The position numbers and the translations under genes are program-made. Under the pieces are notes generated by a model. That model did not search any database and had not been told where the DNA came from. It was given only the letters and a program-made list of their open reading frames with translations. From Acutalibacteraceae bacterium (GTDB lineage: Bacteria; Bacillota; Clostridia; Oscillospirales; Acutalibacteraceae), in assembly GCA_036309125.1 (NCBI GenBank), contig JAXJUJ010000112.1, positions 1,552 to 65,551 on the forward strand: a stretch of 64,000 nt of DNA, read 5' to 3'. Position 1 is the stretch's first letter; each line of letters begins with the position of its first letter. Positions 2,136 to 7,402 of this stretch are shown one piece after another.

Positions 2136-2771
2136 ATGAAGAACTTAAAAATTAAAAAAACTCTGAATTTTCGCAAATATTGCATCGGGGTCAATGGCTT
2201 CGAATTTGACTGGAAGTTGATTTTAGTAATGATTTCAACGATTTCTGGTATTATAATAGGTTCACTGACAGCAAAAGGGGAGGGAAGCCTATATTTAAAT
2301 GTTATAGAAGTTATCAATAACTATCTTGTTGATAATGAATTTGAAACAACATATTCAGTTTTTATTGTTTATTTGCTTATACCTACAGTTTTTGCAATGA
2401 TACTTTTTTTCAGCGGTATGTCTCTGATAGGTGTTCCGACTGCATGTATAATACCGTTCACATTTTCGTTGTCCGGAAGTATAGTTATATATTATATGTT
2501 TGATGCATTTGCATTAAAGGGATTAGCCTATATTGTAATAATGTTATTACCATACTTAATAATATCTTTGCTATCACTGATGCTTCTTTCAATAGAAACG
2601 ATAAAAATGTCACAGTATCTTATCAGAACAATAAGCAAAACAAAACGTAATTCTGATTATAATTTTACATTATATTATAAAAACTACTTAAAAAGCTATG
2701 CGTTGATAATAATAGCGTGCATTATTAAAATAACAATTGATAAATTATTTGTCGGACTTTTTACCTTTTGA
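2136..2771 (+). CDS. polytopic membrane protein, possibly stage II sporulation protein M (SpoIIM-like)
   Basis: 211 aa with about 5 hydrophobic segments, similar in size and topology to SpoIIM. It lies next to a xerD-like gene, and spoIIM is near xerD (ripX) in Bacillus subtilis as I recall. No strong motif match. Confidence 0.45.
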   Translation: MKNLKIKKTLNFRKYCIGVNGFEFDWKLILVMISTISGIIIGSLTAKGEGSLYLNVIEVINNYLVDNEFETTYSVFIVYLLIPTVFAMILFFSGMSLIGVPTACIIPFTFSLSGSIVIYYMFDAFALKGLAYIVIMLLPYLIISLLSLMLLSIETIKMSQYLIRTISKTKRNSDYNFTLYYKNYLKSYALIIIACIIKITIDKLFVGLFTF

Positions 2772-3734
2772 TAATTTATTTAACGGATTGGATGAGACAG
2801 CTTCCTTAAGCTGGGAATCAACAATATGAGTGTATATTTCTGTAGTTGAGAGGTTTTCGTGACCGAGGATTTCTTTGATTAGAAGAACATCAACATTTCC
2901 TTGTTGATACATAAGCGTTGCTGCTGTATGTCTTAATTTATGCGTGGAAAATCCCTGATCACCAAGACCGGCTTTTTCTAAAAAGGTTTTGACAATATAT
3001 TGCACAGTTTTGGGACTTATTCTAAATTTTCTACTACTGAGAAAGAGGGCATTCTTGTCTTTAACTCCGTCAACAGGACGCACCTTCATATACTCATTCA
3101 AGGCATTGATACACATATCATTTAAATATATAATGCGTTCTTTATTTCCTTTTCCGGTAACACGCATAGTATTATCTGATCTGATATCACCATAATTCAG
3201 ATTAACTAATTCAGAAAGTCGCAGACCACAATTCAAAAAAATTGCAATAATACAGTAATCACGCTCTTTAAATTTGCCGTCAATACAATTGAGAAGGTTG
3301 ATGCTTTCGTCAAGAGTCAGATATTTAGGTAAAGCTTTTTTAGCTTTAGGTGACTCAAGCTCTTGCATAGGATTATTTTCTATCTGCCCTGTATTAACGG
3401 ACAGATATTTAAAATAAGCCCGTAGCGCAGAAGCTTTTCTTGCACGTGAAGCAGCGTCGTTGTTTCGATCAGTCTTGCAATAAGATAAAAAAGCATAAGC
3501 ATCCTGAATAGAAACAGTTTCAATTAATTCAAGATCTATTCCTGAAATATCAATCTGTTCAAAATCAATTTTACTATCAACTTTTTTTCTGAATATAAGT
3601 AAAAACTTAAAAAATAATCTCAAGTCAGATGCGTACTCTAATACAGTAAGTTCTGACTTGTTTTTAATTATACTCATATAGTTAAGGAATTCAACAACAC
3701 TTAACGGTAATTTACTGAACTCATCTTTATGCAT
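2745..3734 (-). CDS. XerC/XerD-like tyrosine recombinase
   Basis: Motifs GLRLSEL (Arg-I), THKLRHTAAT (HxxR), LGHENLSTTEIYTH (His and Tyr nucleophile). The ORF track starts at 3758, but M9 (ATG 3734) has a GGTGAT Shine-Dalgarno, and the predicted promoter would leave only about 8 nt of leader for 3758. Confidence 0.85.
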   Translation of the reverse strand: MHKDEFSKLPLSVVEFLNYMSIIKNKSELTVLEYASDLRLFFKFLLIFRKKVDSKIDFEQIDISGIDLELIETVSIQDAYAFLSYCKTDRNNDAASRARKASALRAYFKYLSVNTGQIENNPMQELESPKAKKALPKYLTLDESINLLNCIDGKFKERDYCIIAIFLNCGLRLSELVNLNYGDIRSDNTMRVTGKGNKERIIYLNDMCINALNEYMKVRPVDGVKDKNALFLSSRKFRISPKTVQYIVKTFLEKAGLGDQGFSTHKLRHTAATLMYQQGNVDVLLIKEILGHENLSTTEIYTHIVDSQLKEAVSSNPLNKLSKGKKSDK

Positions 3735-3772
3735 AATATCACCACTTAATAAGAGCATCTGTTTATATTATC

Positions 3773-3801
3773 ATTATAACAGAGGAGGCTTAAAAAGTCA
3801 A
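3773..3801 (-). promoter_or_regulatory. sigma-70-type promoter of the xerD-like gene
   Basis: On the minus strand, TTGACT (3801-3796), a 17-nt spacer, then TATAAT (3778-3773) preceded by TG (TGTTATAAT). The -35 lies 2 nt from the left palindromic site. Confidence 0.7.
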
Positions 3802-3803
3802 TT

Positions 3804-3837
3804 AATTATACAAAAGAACTAAGATTTTGTATAATTA
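3804..3837. repeat. left boundary palindromic site (att- or dif-like)
   Basis: AATTATACAAAA-GAACTAAGA-TTTTGTATAATT(A): 12-bp inverted arms with a 9-bp spacer. The same arms occur at 6535-6565. Confidence 0.6.
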
Positions 3838-4055
3838 TGAGTGCAAAGTGACGAAAGTTGTTGAGAAATATGTTTTTTCTTTCCAGCAGGCGGGAAACGC
3901 ACAGCCACAGGGCTGTAGCGAGTTTCGCGGACGTTTCGGGCCTCTGGGTTCCCGAACGTTCCGCGACGTGTCTGAAGCTGCAGCACTGTGGTGAGCGTCT
4001 CACGCTCTGCCGACACTCACTGACCGTACGTAGTGGACATAGCACAGACTTACCA

Positions 4056-4111
4056 CAGAAGGCAAACACTCACACCTTGAGGGCGCTCCCCCACGGGGGA
4101 CGGGAGGGGGC
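4056..4111 (+). repeat. 56-bp perfect direct repeat, copy A
   Basis: CAGAAGGCAAACACTCACACCTTGAGGGCGCTCCCCCACGGGGGACGGGAGGGGGC, identical to 4659-4714. Confidence 0.95.
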
Positions 4112-4146
4112 AAAACAAAAGGACCCCGACAAACGTCGGAGTCCTT
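4112..4146 (-). terminator. rho-independent terminator (minus strand) inside the GC-rich block
   Basis: The minus strand reads AAGGACUCCGAC-GUUU-GUCGGGGUCCUU followed by UUGUUUUG. The stem is 12 bp with one G-U pair. Confidence 0.8.
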
Positions 4147-4188
4147 CCGTGAAAAGTGAAGATAATCAATATCTCACACCTATCGGGC
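4112..4188 (-). ncRNA. candidate ~75-nt small RNA (promoter-to-terminator unit)
   Basis: Defined by the promoter at 4195-4223 and the terminator at 4112-4146. There is no ORF between them. Confidence 0.5.
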
Positions 4189-4194
4189 ACCTAA

Positions 4195-4223
4195 ATATTA
4201 GCACAGCCTTGTGGAAAAGTCAA
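4195..4223 (-). promoter_or_regulatory. strong sigma-70-type promoter (minus strand)
   Basis: On the minus strand, TTGACT (4223-4218), a 17-nt spacer, then TAATAT (4200-4195). An A-tract (CATCAAAAAAAGTG) immediately upstream resembles an UP element. Confidence 0.7.
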
Positions 4224-4261
4224 CACTTTTTTTGATGTCAATATATTGACCCTTCAGGGTC

Positions 4262-4352
4262 CTATGTAGCACACATCAAGGCGGACACAGCCGTCAAGGT
4301 GGAGACCGTAAGGTACTACCTTGACAGCTGTGTAATCCGCCGTGATACATAG
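4262..4352. other. long imperfect hairpin (~29 bp paired over 91 nt)
   Basis: CTATGTA..TCA.GGCGGA.ACAGC.GTCAAGGT, a 17-nt loop, then ACCTTGAC.GCTGT....TCCGCC.TGA TACATAG. Confidence 0.6.
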
Positions 4353-4658
4353 TAGTCGCTATGATAGAAAAACAGTATGCGACTGGGCGCGGGTGGGAGG
4401 CGACCGAACAAGGCGGAGCATCGCTGACCACTCACTCAATATGCTCCGCCGCAGTGAGGGTAGCGGGCGGGAATACAACTGTTCGAAGTGCCGACCACAC
4501 AACTTACCACACCACTACACTTCTCAGCTTCCCGGTAACCTGCCCCCGGCACGAGTAACCGAGAATGCGACCGGAGCAAAAGCGAAGCGGCTGTTTTTCG
4601 TGGCTGTCGGCTACCCCCGGGCGCATTCCCATAGTTGACAATTATTGCACATCTTCCT

Positions 4659-4714
4659 CAGAAGGCAAACACTCACACCTTGAGGGCGCTCCCCCACGGG
4701 GGACGGGAGGGGGC
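4659..4714 (+). repeat. 56-bp perfect direct repeat, copy B
   Basis: Identical to 4056-4111. About 20 nt of degenerate similarity extends upstream of both copies (GCACAgaCTTaCCaCAGAAGG versus GCACAtCTTCCtCAGAAGG). Confidence 0.95.
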
Positions 4715-4785
4715 TGTTCCTACCGTTTGCACTATTTTGTTATGTGGCTGTCGCTTGTATTAGACTGCCGAAGGCTGTCTGATAC

Positions 4786-4809
4786 ATTCTTGATAATATA
4801 GAAACAACG
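4786..4809 (+). promoter_or_regulatory. putative double-strand origin nick region (pC194/pUB110 type)
   Basis: ATTCTTGATAATATAGAAACAACG contains CTTGATA (4789-4795). As I recall, the pUB110 origin reads CTTGATACATATAGAAATAACG with the nick after CTTG. It lies about 45 bp upstream of rep. Confidence 0.6.
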
Positions 4810-4837
4810 TTTTTCAATAAAAAGCCTTCAATCCTTT

Positions 4838-5746
4838 ATGTATCAATGCTTTCAGCACTTTCTTATGTCTAACGATTGTCTTATAGAAGAACTTACTTAT
4901 TACAAGAATTTGACTGAAATTACTGCAGATTGTATTATAAATAATAGTGGTGCTATTATTTCAAGAGCTCAAAAAATCAAATTATGTGGTACTTTTATCG
5001 AGACTGCACACATCAGTGACGATAACGGCACGGTTCGCGAGGTGGTAACCTCTGCGAACTTCTGCCGTGAAAGACTCTGCCCGATGTGTCAAAGACGAAA
5101 GTCTTTGAAAACATCTTCAGATGTCCGAAAACTTGTTGAATATCTGAATGGCCGTGGCTGGATACATATGGTGCTGACCGTAAAGAATTGCTCTGCATCA
5201 GAGCTGGACGAAACAATAACGAAGTTGTTTCGTGACAGCTCATTTCTTATCACGAAAACGCCCGAATTCAAGAAGGCTTTTCGTGGTGCTTTGCGGTGTC
5301 TTGAAGTTACCTTCAATTCTGAGACTGATACTTATCATCCACATCTGCATGTGTTATTGAGCTCTGACAAGAGCTACAATAACAACAGCAGAAAACGCAT
5401 CAGCCGTGATCGGCTGCGTTGGTTGTGGTGGGAAGTATCAGGCATAGACTATATGCCACAAGTACACATTGATTCCAATGTTAACGAAGGTATCATCGCA
5501 GAAATAGCAAAGTACTGTGTCAAGCCTTTAGAGCTTGACTTGCCCTCTTCAAAGCGGTGCGAAGTGTTGGAGACACTTCACTCTGCTTTGCACGGTCGTC
5601 GTCTGATGCAGACTTATGGAGAAATCAAGACAGCTTTCAAAGCTCTGAAGATAGATATCAACTCTGATTCTGAAAGGGAATATGTAGCTGACACCGAACA
5701 AATGTTCGTATATGATTTTGAGCTTTCACAATATTGGAAAAGATAA
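4838..5746 (+). CDS. rep: rolling-circle replication initiator, Rep_1 (pC194/pUB110) family HUH endonuclease
   Basis: 302 aa. CRERLCPMCQRRK (compare pUB110 RepU CKSRLCPMCNWRR), MVLTVKN, HUH motif HPHLHVLL (5336-5359), active-site AEIAKYCVKP (Tyr at 5513-5515) and LHGRRLMQTYGE. There is no obvious Shine-Dalgarno. Confidence 0.9.
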   Translation: MYQCFQHFLMSNDCLIEELTYYKNLTEITADCIINNSGAIISRAQKIKLCGTFIETAHISDDNGTVREVVTSANFCRERLCPMCQRRKSLKTSSDVRKLVEYLNGRGWIHMVLTVKNCSASELDETITKLFRDSSFLITKTPEFKKAFRGALRCLEVTFNSETDTYHPHLHVLLSSDKSYNNNSRKRISRDRLRWLWWEVSGIDYMPQVHIDSNVNEGIIAEIAKYCVKPLELDLPSSKRCEVLETLHSALHGRRLMQTYGEIKTAFKALKIDINSDSEREYVADTEQMFVYDFELSQYWKR

Positions 5747-6288
5747 TTGATTTGACTTTTTATGGAAAGTCAAATCGAAAGGGGTGCTTGCTTATAAAAA
5801 GCGAATACCTTGACCCGAAGATGATCGAACATGTTTTATACGCTCTCACGCCTCAGAATAGGCTAATATGCCGAGTTTGCTTGAAAACTGGGTTGAGACT
5901 TTCTGACGTGCTTTCACTTAAAACAGACAGCCTCAGCAAGCGTATGACAATACGCGAGCTGAAAACAGGAAAGAAAAAGACTTTCACCATTGGTGACCGT
6001 CTTTTTCGTGAGATGTCGGTTCAGGCTGGACAGGTGTATGTGTTCCCACACCGCTCTGATCCTGATCGGCACAAAACAAGGCAAGCTGTATACGCTGATC
6101 TGAAACGAGCTTCTAAGGCTTTTCGGGTCAAGTGCAACTTTTCTCCGCATAGCTTGCGGAAGGTTTACGCTGTGGAATTGTACAAAAAATACGGTGATCT
6201 GAAGCGAGTTCAGAATGCTCTGAATCACGATAATGATGTTGTAACAATCATTTATGCTTTAGCAGATGAACTTCAGCGTAGAAAATAA
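5734..6288 (+). CDS. small tyrosine recombinase (catalytic domain only)
   Basis: 184 aa. Arg-I in TGLRLSD (R55), Lys in ELKTGKKK, HSLRK (H139/R142), ALNHDN (H165) and TIIY (Y174). The TTG start overlaps the rep stop by 13 nt, and the exact start is uncertain (alternative TTG at 5788 after AAAGGGG). Confidence 0.85.
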   Translation: MEKIIDLTFYGKSNRKGCLLIKSEYLDPKMIEHVLYALTPQNRLICRVCLKTGLRLSDVLSLKTDSLSKRMTIRELKTGKKKTFTIGDRLFREMSVQAGQVYVFPHRSDPDRHKTRQAVYADLKRASKAFRVKCNFSPHSLRKVYAVELYKKYGDLKRVQNALNHDNDVVTIIYALADELQRRK

Positions 6289-6324
6289 AAAAGAGACTCA
6301 CTGTTGACAGTGGGTCTCTTTTTG
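6287..6324. terminator. bidirectional rho-independent terminator after the recombinase gene
   Basis: AAAAA-AGAGACTCAC-tgttgaca-GTGGGTCTCT-TTTTG: a 10-bp stem with an A-run on one side and a T-run on the other. Confidence 0.85.
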
Positions 6325-6387
6325 TGTTAAGTTATAACCGACAGATGCGGGGAAGCTTCTATCACGGGCGTTGGGTTATAACCTTAC
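6287..6387 (-). ncRNA. candidate ~100-nt small RNA (second promoter-to-terminator unit)
   Basis: The promoter at 6394-6422 fires toward the terminator at 6287-6324. The transcript would contain the GGTTATAAC / GTTATAACC pairing (6374-6382 / 6331-6339). No ORF with an RBS. Confidence 0.4.
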
Positions 6388-6393
6388 TTTGTG

Positions 6394-6422
6394 ATAATAT
6401 CATAGCTTTCAACTGTTGTCAA
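6394..6422 (-). promoter_or_regulatory. sigma-70-type promoter (minus strand)
   Basis: On the minus strand, TTGACA (6422-6417), a 17-nt spacer, then TATTAT (6399-6394). Confidence 0.6.
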
Positions 6423-6478
6423 TAGAAACTTTCAGAGAGGAGTGAACTGACTGAAAGCAGATACTGAACGAAATAATT

Positions 6479-6500
6479 CTACAAAATCTATCTTTTGTAG
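6479..6500. repeat. third, shorter palindromic site related to the boundary sites
   Basis: CTACAAAA-TCTATC-TTTTGTAG: 8-bp arms with a 6-bp spacer. It shares the ACAAAA/TTTTGT core with the boundary sites. Confidence 0.5.
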
Positions 6501-6534
6501 CCGAGGTTTGGTCGGCTTTAATTGCTGTTTAAGC

Positions 6535-6565
6535 AATTATACAAAAGAAATATTTTGTATAATTA
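6535..6565. repeat. right boundary palindromic site (att- or dif-like)
   Basis: AATTATACAAAA-GAAATA-TTTTGTATAATT(A): 12-bp arms with a 6-bp spacer. Confidence 0.6.
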
Positions 6566-6634
6566 AGGGGAGTTTGTAATAAGAATATACCGTATTTTTT
6601 GCAAATACAGTTAATATTCCCATTATAATGACTA

Positions 6635-7402
6635 TTAACTTTGTAATAACGGAATTATACCACCGATATCAATCAATGGACCTTCAGACAATTCAATGTA
6701 ATTAATATTATATTTTAAAAGAAAATCTTTAATTAAATCTCCATCGATGTGTGTATCAAGTTTACCTGTAAAGACAATCAGGTTTTTATCAAGCATACCA
6801 CAAGTTCCGCCGATAAAACCGTATTCACGACCTTTTAATACAACCGAGCCTTTTCTGATTAAAAGACAATCAAATCCATTATTCACAGCAGTCTTATATA
6901 TTGATTCATCATCAGTTATTAAAGCATTTTCTTTAATTAATACAACTGAACAAGCGGCATATCCTTGATTTACGTGGATTAATTCATACTGATGTAATTT
7001 AGCGTAATTCTCCAATGAATTATCAATATATTTAGTGTTACATAAAATTTTATTTCCGGCAACGGTTACATTTAACTTTACATCACCCGGATATGGTGAA
7101 GAAATTTTGTGTTCTGAAACAATTAATTTAATTTCATTATTCAGATTATTAATTGTTAAATAATTAACAATTATAAATTTTAAACTTTCGTCTATAATAA
7201 CACAGTTTTCGCTTACCTGTATAAATCTGCAGTCTGCATGTGTGGCAATATCCGTAAACATCTTGTCATTATATGGAATCTCAACGACCTCAATGCCCCA
7301 AATATCTCTAATTTTTTGTGAAATCAGTGGATACTCCGAAGAAATTAATACAGACAGCACTTTTTTGTCAGGTAACAACGGTTTAACAGGAAGTTTTTTC
7401 AA
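6635..7402 (-). CDS. conserved hypothetical protein (possibly a DUF6873-type guanidino-group-modifying-enzyme fold)
   Basis: 255-aa ORF with host-like composition, located downstream of radA. The GFIGGTCGML motif is near the C-terminus. The family assignment is from memory only. Confidence 0.6.
   Translation of the reverse strand: MKKLPVKPLLPDKKVLSVLISSEYPLISQKIRDIWGIEVVEIPYNDKMFTDIATHADCRFIQVSENCVIIDESLKFIIVNYLTINNLNNEIKLIVSEHKISSPYPGDVKLNVTVAGNKILCNTKYIDNSLENYAKLHQYELIHVNQGYAACSVVLIKENALITDDESIYKTAVNNGFDCLLIRKGSVVLKGREYGFIGGTCGMLDKNLIVFTGKLDTHIDGDLIKDFLLKYNINYIELSEGPLIDIGGIIPLLQS

Follow-up and report, generated by a model that had tools for sequence, protein, structure and literature searches.

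A Xer-linked palindrome, most likely a dif site, and the rolling-circle plasmid probably integrated at it in an Acutalibacteraceae genome

The xer locus and its palindromes

The DNA analysed here (the window, a stretch of 64,000 nucleotides from an Acutalibacteraceae bacterium) carries a gene for a Xer-family tyrosine recombinase (xer) and, upstream of it, an element coding for a rolling-circle replication initiator (rep) and a small tyrosine recombinase (int). The element is bounded by two palindromes, the L and R sites (Table 1). As judged from comparison with other genomes, the 30-bp palindrome AATTATACAAAA-N6-TTTTGTATAATT is most likely a chromosome dimer-resolution site (dif) at the replication terminus. 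With good confidence, the whole arrangement can be explained by a xer-linked dif at the terminus and a rolling-circle plasmid with a dif mimic that was integrated there by one crossover.

The first-pass annotation had described both boundary palindromes as having the same 12-bp arms around spacers of 9 and 6 bp, and these features were recovered in the sequence. Its starts, 3804 and 6535, were right, whereas its ends, 3837 and 6565, were each one base too long; a third site that it placed at 6479-6500 is real but larger, and is called site 1 here. The arms of the L site reach 13 bp once the flanking T/A pair is counted. The exact 12-mer occurs four times in the 64-kb window, always as an arm of the L or R site. 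With at most one mismatch, 8 copies were counted against 2.06 +/- 1.35 in shuffled sequence, a number reached in 0 of 100 shuffles; two of the one-mismatch matches are inside the element and one of these is the beginning of site 1, whose right arm is conserved in its inner 7 bp only. No further copy of the palindrome was found in the 64-kb window. On the xer-distal side of dif, a C-rich motif (CCCCTACCC, CACCCCG; AAGGGGAG on the plus strand of the window) adjoins the site in many species (loci L017-L060) and could be an accessory sequence.

Table 1. Features of the xer locus and of the integrated element (window coordinates)
Feature	Position	Strand	Sequence or remarks
Xer-family tyrosine recombinase gene (xer)	2745..3758	minus	PF00589 (1.5e-35) and PF02899; 337-aa open reading frame
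Promoter-like TTGACT-17-TATAAT for xer	3801->3773	minus	11/12 matches, TG before the -10; match to consensus only
L site	3804-3836		AATTATACAAAA/GAACTAAGA/TTTTGTATAATT; arms 3804-3815 and 3825-3836; 9-bp spacer 3816-3824
L site, putative makeup (attL)	3804-3818; 3819-3836		chromosomal dif arm + GAA; rest of plasmid spacer, CTAAGA, + plasmid arm
Integrated rolling-circle plasmid	3819..6549	plus	limits from the inferred crossover after GAA
G+C-rich (0.46-0.62) non-coding block	3838..4788		about 950 bp
CTTGATA	4789..4795	rep-sense strand	just upstream of rep; read from the sequence
Rep_1 rolling-circle replication initiator gene (rep)	4838..5746	plus	302 aa; PF01446 (1.6e-41) over 215 residues
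Small tyrosine recombinase gene (int)	5734..6288	plus	catalytic domain only; 184-aa open reading frame; PF00589 (1.4e-22)
Terminator-like hairpin and T-run	6293..6324	plus	downstream of int; read from the sequence
Site 1 (inner dif-like site)	6475-6504		AATTCTACAAAA/TCTATC/TTTTGTAGCCGA; 6-bp spacer
R site	6535-6564		AATTATACAAAA/GAAATA/TTTTGTATAATT; arms 6535-6546 and 6553-6564; 6-bp spacer 6547-6552
R site, putative makeup	6535-6549; 6550-6564		plasmid arm + GAA; ATA + chromosomal arm; identical to the empty-site allele
AAGGGGAG flank	6565-6572		side of dif away from xer; CCCCTACCC-like C-rich motif on the opposite strand

The conservation of the palindrome was examined in one genome per species carrying the Xer protein, which gave 80 loci, nearly all from metagenome-assembled genomes of Acutalibacteraceae or 'Ruminococcaceae/Clostridia'. 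A palindrome of the form (A)ATTATACAAAA-N6-TTTTGTATAAT(T), or its variants GATACAAAA and CTTATACAAAA, is present upstream of xer in about 60 of the 80 species, usually at a distance of 57-220 bp; its spacer is 6 bp long without exception and variable in sequence. The linkage extends to hosts whose Xer is only 41-49% identical to that of the window. Sites of the dif type are usually recognized computationally by inverted arms of about 11 bp around a 6-8 bp centre and by a GC-skew switch at the terminus. Both the palindrome at 6535-6564 and that of the empty alleles described below have perfect 12-bp arms around a 6-bp centre. GC skew was compared between the 8 kb upstream of the site and the DNA downstream of xer in the 40 loci with enough flank (at most 10 kb per side), and it was higher upstream in all 40 (means +0.093 and -0.057; Wilcoxon p=1.8e-12), with a strict change from plus to minus in 37 of them. 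The window has a skew of +0.097 on the left side of xer and of -0.161 in the 57 kb on its right side. This check, called for in the first-pass annotation, places the locus at a skew sign change in the window as in the 37 species loci. Since extending the window leftward through tsaB gained only 1.1 kb, the terminus argument rests on the other species. Neither a second Xer-like gene nor a Bacillus-type dif (up to 7 substitutions allowed) was found in the 64 kb, and in loci of up to 21 kb a second palindromic copy with a 6-bp spacer appeared only at junctions of inserted elements. The Xer-family recombinase encoded directly downstream presumably acts on the palindrome, and the perfectly symmetric arms suggest that one protein does so.

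A different explanation would make the palindromes primarily transcriptional, that is, an autoregulatory operator combined with extended -10 promoters of xer, their position at the ends of the element being secondary. Every arm does contain the extended -10 TGTATAAT, and a consensus promoter adjoins the L site, its -35 ending 2 nt away, both as the first-pass annotation had remarked. Furthermore, in loci L018-L024 a gap of 27 nt separates the xer-proximal arm from the start codon, which puts the arm where a -10 is expected; the gap holds a ribosome-binding site alone, without another promoter-like sequence. This explanation accounts neither for the strict 6-bp spacing around a variable spacer sequence, nor for the position at the skew switch, nor for the fact that unrelated elements have integrated repeatedly, their crossovers falling within the palindrome (see below), and we hold it to be very improbable. 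As an added function of the arms, an operator or promoter role is plausible from their sequence, and a Xer bound at dif would probably repress its own gene in the arrangement of L018-L024. The operator or promoter alternative raised at first pass is thus compatible with the data as a second function but, as the sole role of the sites, fails on the terminus position and on the junctions.

The listed 337-aa open reading frame of xer probably begins 8 codons early (3734-3758). The true start is likely M9 at 3734, preceded by GGTGA, which gives a protein of 329 aa; the homologues are 329 aa long and begin with MHKDEF. All NCBIfam scores are below the equivalog cut-offs of the named families (XerC 215/335, XerD 196/330, XerA 204/220, XerS 153/267), and comparison with the XerH structure gave only 68 bits. 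On these scores, the window Xer is a Xer-family protein of an unnamed subfamily. Searches against solved structures placed both this protein and the small recombinase among generic Xer/integrase folds. On the left, xer is faced by a convergent SpoIIM-like gene, whereas the DUF6873 gene and radA lie to its right on the minus strand. The 3' ends of xer (minus) and of the SpoIIM-like gene (plus) overlap by 27 bp (2745-2771), and gene orientation switches about 1 kb from dif. This xer-spoIIM neighbourhood is reminiscent of the ripX-fur-spoIIM order of Bacillus subtilis.

Empty and occupied alleles of the site

Public assemblies were looked up by the exact Xer protein of the window. Contigs L001, L002 and L004, which code for the identical protein, carry empty alleles: the gap between the DUF6873 gene and xer measures 145 bp and contains one palindrome, whose spacer is GAAATA and whose flanks agree with those of the window. 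The search for empty sites had been proposed in the first-pass annotation, and the palindrome is indeed present in them, with its 6-bp spacer. Contigs L003, L005, L006 and L009 are occupied and have the same junctions as the window; the hybrid L site is identical in L003, L005 and L006 and was found in none of the empty alleles. The segment 3819-6549, 2,731 bp in length, is the exact difference between occupied and empty alleles. As the empty alleles carry a single palindrome with the 6-bp GAAATA spacer, this comparison identifies the R site as the one native to the chromosome and the L site as a hybrid junction. The long spacer is found in the L site and the chromosomal spacer in the R site, which puts the crossover within AATTATACAAAA-GAA. 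The plasmid spacer GAACTAAGA and the dif spacer GAAATA share only GAA, at their start. The reconstructed attP is AATTATACAAAA/GAACTAAGA/TTTTGTATAATT, and the circular junction of an excised form is predicted to read GTTTAAGC-AATTATACAAAA-GAACTAAGA-TTTTGTATAATT-ATGAGTGC, with ...TTAAGC directly before AATTATACAAAA.

In the mechanism that we propose, a 2,731-bp rolling-circle plasmid whose dif mimic has the same 12-bp arms and the 9-bp spacer GAACTAAGA would be inserted by a single crossover at the AATTATACAAAA-GAA boundary, the sole identical part of the two spacers. The outcome would be a 9-bp-spacer hybrid beside xer (3804-3836), which is expected to be inactive, and an intact 6-bp-spacer dif on the far side (6535-6564). 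Only one strand pair may be exchanged, replication finishing the event. Under this mechanism the chromosome retains a working dif after the insertion, and the tandem arrays of other hosts can be explained in the same manner. The suggestion made at first pass, that the element had integrated into a palindromic dif-like target next to a Xer-like gene, agrees with the empty alleles, the skew, the conservation and the other elements found at the site.

These other elements were revealed by the interval between the DUF6873 gene and xer in other species, which holds unrelated insertions: elements with a Zot-like ATPase and a G2P-type Rep in L020 and L047, and RepB elements in L044 and L060. In all four, an intact 6-bp-spacer dif is found on the far side and a hybrid beside xer; in the hybrids the xer-distal arm is degenerate, whereas the central region and the xer-proximal arm match dif. 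No PF00589 domain was detected by Pfam in 17 open reading frames scanned from the four insertions, all those of at least 160 aa included. Integrative mobile elements exploiting Xer (IMEX) are defined as elements without a recombinase of their own, which depend on that of the host. Because elements without their own recombinase are found at the site, as for IMEX, the host Xer appears able to integrate DNA there.

The two insertions with a Zot-like ATPase, located between dif and xer (L020:4209-10000, about 5.7 kb; L047:1651-10000, about 8.3 kb), are probably inovirus-like Clostridia prophages using Xer. A tRNA-Met gene and a DUF2726 gene are present inside insertions at dif (L044:9800-9874, L047:7900-7974), the tRNA gene of L044 ending about 20 bp from the xer-proximal junction, and the L044 and L047 insertions may be composite. 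In L031, L037, L042 and L057, possible junctions with spacers of 9-10 bp are present about 2.7-2.9 kb upstream of xer; they were rejected as insertion boundaries, since the DUF6873 gene separates them from dif. In the IMG/VR database, 26 contigs (L176-L201) have the arms with all 12 bp unchanged, and the spacer is 6 bp long in 20 of these. Some of the contigs consist of regions with xer, dif and a G2P-type Rep; others are phage-like, 8-55 kb long, and carry the palindrome without xer, among them L184, L185 and L193, which have the spacer TACATA in common. The phage-like contigs may be phages or phage-plasmids with a dif mimic.

The plasmid family and its two-site module

Homologues of the small recombinase, 39-54% identical to it, are encoded by seven free circular plasmids of 2.2-3.8 kb (HG796380 and others, from an uncultured-bacterium plasmidome), and the Rep proteins of the free plasmids L010, L012 and L015 share 33-40% identity with that of the window. 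A metagenome scan yielded more than 571 relatives of the small recombinase, many of them on contigs of 2.3-3.6 kb with terminal overlaps, i.e. circles; a scan of viral contigs with the small-recombinase alignment gave no relatives. The free plasmids carry two dif-like sites downstream of int, 40-145 bp apart. This two-site module was always linked to the small-recombinase gene, 85-810 bp downstream of it, and was found in L010, L012, L013, L014, L077 and many metagenomic relatives. Across the family, the spacer of site 1 is usually 6 bp long and only the inner half of the right arm is conserved, and site 2 has two good arms around a spacer of 7-12 bp (free circles L010, L012, L013 and L014, and many circular contigs). 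The reconstructed circle of the window has the same module, composed of site 1 at 6475-6504 and a site 2 with a 9-bp spacer; site 2 of L012, AATTGCACAAAA/TTAAACATG/TTTTGTGCAATT, is at the same distance from int as in the window. Since the free circular relatives carry spacers of 7-12 bp, the long spacer is native to the plasmid and is no product of an aberrant exchange. Site 2 spacers share their first three bases with the local dif spacer and differ from it in the remainder: they begin with TAA in the relatives, where dif has TAAAAA or TAAAGA, and with GAA in the window, where dif has GAAATA. The first-pass annotation had cautioned that unequal spacers do not fit a simple conservative exchange; the inequality is real, but the misfit disappears with relatives whose free form natively has 7-12 bp and with a match to dif limited to the first 3 nt.

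Integrated plasmids with the small recombinase adjoin xer (41-49% identical to that of the window) in L077, in L064 and in at least 12 metagenomic loci, and wherever the locus holds both ends the order is hybrid (N7-N10), rep, int, site 1 and N6 dif. Site 1 is followed by the N6 dif in all 13 integrated-type copies, and the crossover was at site 2 in 13 of 13, never at site 1. The inner ACAAAA/TTTTGT is the arm part conserved across all elements. In the plasmid arm that rebuilds dif, the outer 6 bp vary by host and copy the local host arm (12/12 in the window, L150, L173 and L174), which fits selection to restore a working dif. Tandem two-copy arrays at dif were found in L077, L173, L132 and L118, with middle junctions that retain a 7- or 9-bp-spacer site. 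Where the array is covered from end to end (L077, L173, L118), the two copies meet at a junction equal to the long-spacer one at its far end. The array of L077 (-8213 to -90 relative to xer) is made of two tandem copies of a 4,046-bp element coding for a G2P-type Rep and a small recombinase 33% identical to that of the window, and its middle junction is the same 7-bp-spacer site as its xer-proximal junction.

Which recombinase performs the exchange was considered in the light of these data. The small recombinase could act alone as a classical integrase, on double-stranded DNA and via the ACAAAA/TTTTGT cores, the palindrome being merely its attB and the host Xer remaining uninvolved. Such a role would suit a gene that is intact with all catalytic residues in every family member and always linked to the two-site module, as well as the conservation of the inner arm part across all elements. 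On the other side, elements without a recognizable recombinase have used this site too, their crossovers falling in the same central region, and the outer 6 bp of the dif-rebuilding arm copy the host, as expected if the host Xer must bind the rebuilt site. In our judgement, a protein reduced to the catalytic domain is also unlikely to be the sole determinant of specificity for 12-bp arms. We regard this possibility as quite improbable. The integrase-less elements at the site, the mimicry of the host arm and the need to act on dif implicate the host Xer, and the strict linkage to the two-site module likewise implicates the plasmid recombinase, both on comparative grounds. The host Xer would then act on dif and the small recombinase would act on, or help at, the plasmid site. 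A division of labour in which the small enzyme takes the short arm of the plasmid site and Xer takes dif is appealing but speculative.

Conversely, the host Xer could integrate the double-stranded plasmid by itself through the long-spacer site, as in a strict IMEX, int and site 1 serving for instance multimer resolution or copy control. The use of the same site by integrase-less elements is in agreement with such a scheme, site 2 is often a better palindrome than a hairpin would require, and plasmid Xer sites with a longer centre have a precedent in cer, whose centre has 8 bp where dif has 6 (PMC5357621). Nevertheless, spacers varying from 7 to 12 bp are hard to fit to the fixed geometry of a duplex bound by two Xer monomers, and in 13 of 13 integrated copies the crossover was at site 2 despite its odd spacing, not once at site 1 with its correct spacing. 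The scheme also leaves unexplained why the two spacers are complementary (see below), and we consider it unlikely, albeit a stronger contender than the small recombinase acting alone.

As all elements at the site are rolling-circle replicons, single-stranded intermediates should exist, and the plasmid substrate may be such an intermediate, in which site 1 would pair with the crossover site to form one dif-like duplex with a bulged centre. In minimum-energy DNA folds, the left arm of site 1 pairs with the right arm of site 2 in 6 of 6 elements; the predicted structure is a forked hairpin of 120-185 nt from which the extra spacer bases bulge out. The window folds have free energies (dG) of -24.5 and -25.6 kcal/mol, with z = -6.7 and -8.1. 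Moreover, when the spacers of 26 free-type elements were compared, the 5' end of that of site 1 and the 3' end of that of site 2 were complementary over a mean of 1.96 nt, against 0.66 +/- 0.15 nt in shuffled pairings, of which 0 of 2000 reached 1.96. In the 13 integrated copies, where dif has replaced that part of site 2, the signal is absent (0.46 vs 0.33). A folded substrate would explain why spacer lengths of 7-12 are tolerated and why the crossover is always at site 2. We rate this single-stranded part of the model as evenly poised between right and wrong. Its fullest form, in which the plasmid family integrates at the xer-linked dif via a folded attP hairpin made of a 6-bp and a bulged 7-12-bp mimic, the small recombinase binding the short arm of the hairpin and joining the host Xer at dif in a mixed synapse, is tentative and rather doubtful; it would unite traits of CTXphi integration with traits of integron attC recombination.

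Several points weigh against the explanation preferred here, plasmid integration at a xer-linked dif through a possibly folded substrate. The host Xer may not be the catalyst, because the element encodes its own recombinase. The dif copies were counted in the window and in the loci, the Xer genes in the window, and all genomes used are metagenome assemblies. As for the fold, the flanks beyond the arms are, without gaps, no more complementary than the control (3.7 vs 3.3 of 12). In 12 elements the right arm of site 2 is a closer mirror image of the left arm of that site than a complement of site 1, with the opposite in 7, and the fold of the reconstructed attP is about equalled by that of the integrated sequence. 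The spacer-covariation and other hairpin tests, in addition, treat mutually related elements as independent.

Comparison with known systems and further features of the element

Single-recombinase Xer systems comprise XerS/difSL of streptococci and lactococci, XerH/difH of Helicobacter and Campylobacter, XerA of archaea and XerL of Legionella and Coxiella. As with XerS and some XerA and XerH, the recombinase gene of the window adjoins its presumed site; this linkage and the perfect symmetry of the arms recall the single-recombinase systems (PMC5357621; PMC9765430). The site likewise has inverted arms around a 6-bp centre and a position at the GC-skew switch. Its ACAAAA-N6-TTTTGT core resembles difH (TGAAAA-N6-TTTTCA; PMC3325230), both having the form xAAAA-N6-TTTTx. 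The XerL site was revealed by a dif-mimicking mobile element that leaves one dif intact and one modified (PMC9765430), and the window site was revealed in the same way, with one intact and one modified dif. In contrast to the named Xer families, the window protein is below the XerC, XerD, XerA and XerS cut-offs, the arms are perfectly palindromic over 12 bp and the hosts are Oscillospirales-type Clostridia.

With IMEX and the phage CTXphi, the element shares integration at dif via a dif mimic, the regeneration of one functional dif with alteration of the other junction, tandem arrays and a rolling-circle replicon. It has a dif-like attP and flanking dif-like sites, one of them predicted to be functional, and the same is seen in at least 12 other hosts. 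Unlike IMEX, the window element, like the rest of its family, has a tyrosine recombinase gene of its own, and the catalytic set of the enzyme is intact. Because of this recombinase the element is IMEX-like and not a strict IMEX. Homology to dif on one side of the central region is a hallmark of IMEX that exchange a single strand pair (PMC5357621), and such one-sided homology is present in the window element (GAA) and in its relatives (TAA). CTXphi has two inverted dif-like sites, attP1 and attP2, which pair within the phage single strand (PMC5357621); the window element also has two inverted dif-like sites tens of nt apart, their fold being a prediction only. It differs from CTXphi in being a 2.7-kb plasmid and not a filamentous phage, in the palindromic host site and in a single-stranded use that is only predicted.

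The recombination of integron attC with attI by IntI has in common with the mechanism proposed here a folded single strand with paired boxes and an unpaired centre, the exchange of one strand and completion by replication, and IntI4 was among the best solved-structure matches of the small recombinase (E=9e-14). The likeness is mechanistic only: the element has no integron platform or cassette, its small recombinase lacks the IntI-specific insertion and an N-terminal domain. Similarly to the plasmid Xer sites cer and psi, the plasmid site has a longer centre than the chromosomal dif. The Rep_1 initiator, the CTTGATA upstream of rep and the small size are shared with Rep_1 plasmids of the pC194/pUB110 type. 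We know of no classical Rep_1 plasmid that combines a catalytic-domain-only recombinase with a bipartite dif mimic.

Dimer-resolution sites are known in Proteobacteria, Bacilli, streptococci, epsilon-proteobacteria, archaea and Legionellales. A literature search found no description of a dif type ACAAAA-N6-TTTTGT next to xer in Oscillospirales-type gut Clostridia, of a widespread plasmid family with a dif mimic and its own catalytic-domain-only recombinase, or of a bipartite module of a 6-bp-spacer and a long-spacer site; dif/Xer, IMEX and rolling-circle plasmids are themselves already known kinds. The site could be used as a terminus marker for mostly uncultured genomes, offers a predictable landing place for mobile DNA (plasmids, inovirus-like prophages, tandem arrays) and is a candidate for a neutral place at which genetic tools could be integrated in abundant gut anaerobes. 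The plasmid family, 2-4 kb in size and with more than 570 relatives in metagenomes, is distributed in gut and rumen Clostridia. It raises the questions whether a recombinase without a DNA-binding N-terminal domain can cooperate with the host Xer, and whether a folded single strand can be the substrate.

No DNA similarity was found between the element and PLSDB plasmids. Its G+C-rich block, with 46-62% G+C in a plasmid of a 37% G+C host, contains 59-bp direct repeats at 4053-4111 and 4656-4714 that are 98% identical, start 603 bp apart and bracket 544 bp; public contigs of the same strain break at this repeat. A scan with the repeat gave no match, and no DNA resembling the block was found in the other plasmids. 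Rfam detected nothing in the whole window at the gathering score. In a permissive Rfam search of 3700-6700, the segment 4110-4148 (minus strand), a G+C-rich hairpin with a T-run behind it and about 700 bp away from rep, gave a weak match to ctRNA_p42d (24.9 bits vs a gathering score of 50, E=0.022). The CTTGATA motif, a candidate nick site, matches the nick-site core of double-strand origins of the pC194/pUB110 type. In the Rep_1 translation, HPHLHVLL and EIAKYCVKP are visible as the HUH and catalytic Tyr motifs. The small recombinase is called as 166 aa in L003, which fits a TTG start at 5788, and its residues R55, K80, H139, R142, H165 and Y174 are invariant among 10 homologues. Finally, a palindrome with 11-bp arms and a 6-bp spacer, GATTTGACTTT/TTATGG/AAAGTCAAATC, is located at 5749-5776, at the rep stop and upstream of the likely int start, and could be an operator or attenuator between rep and int.

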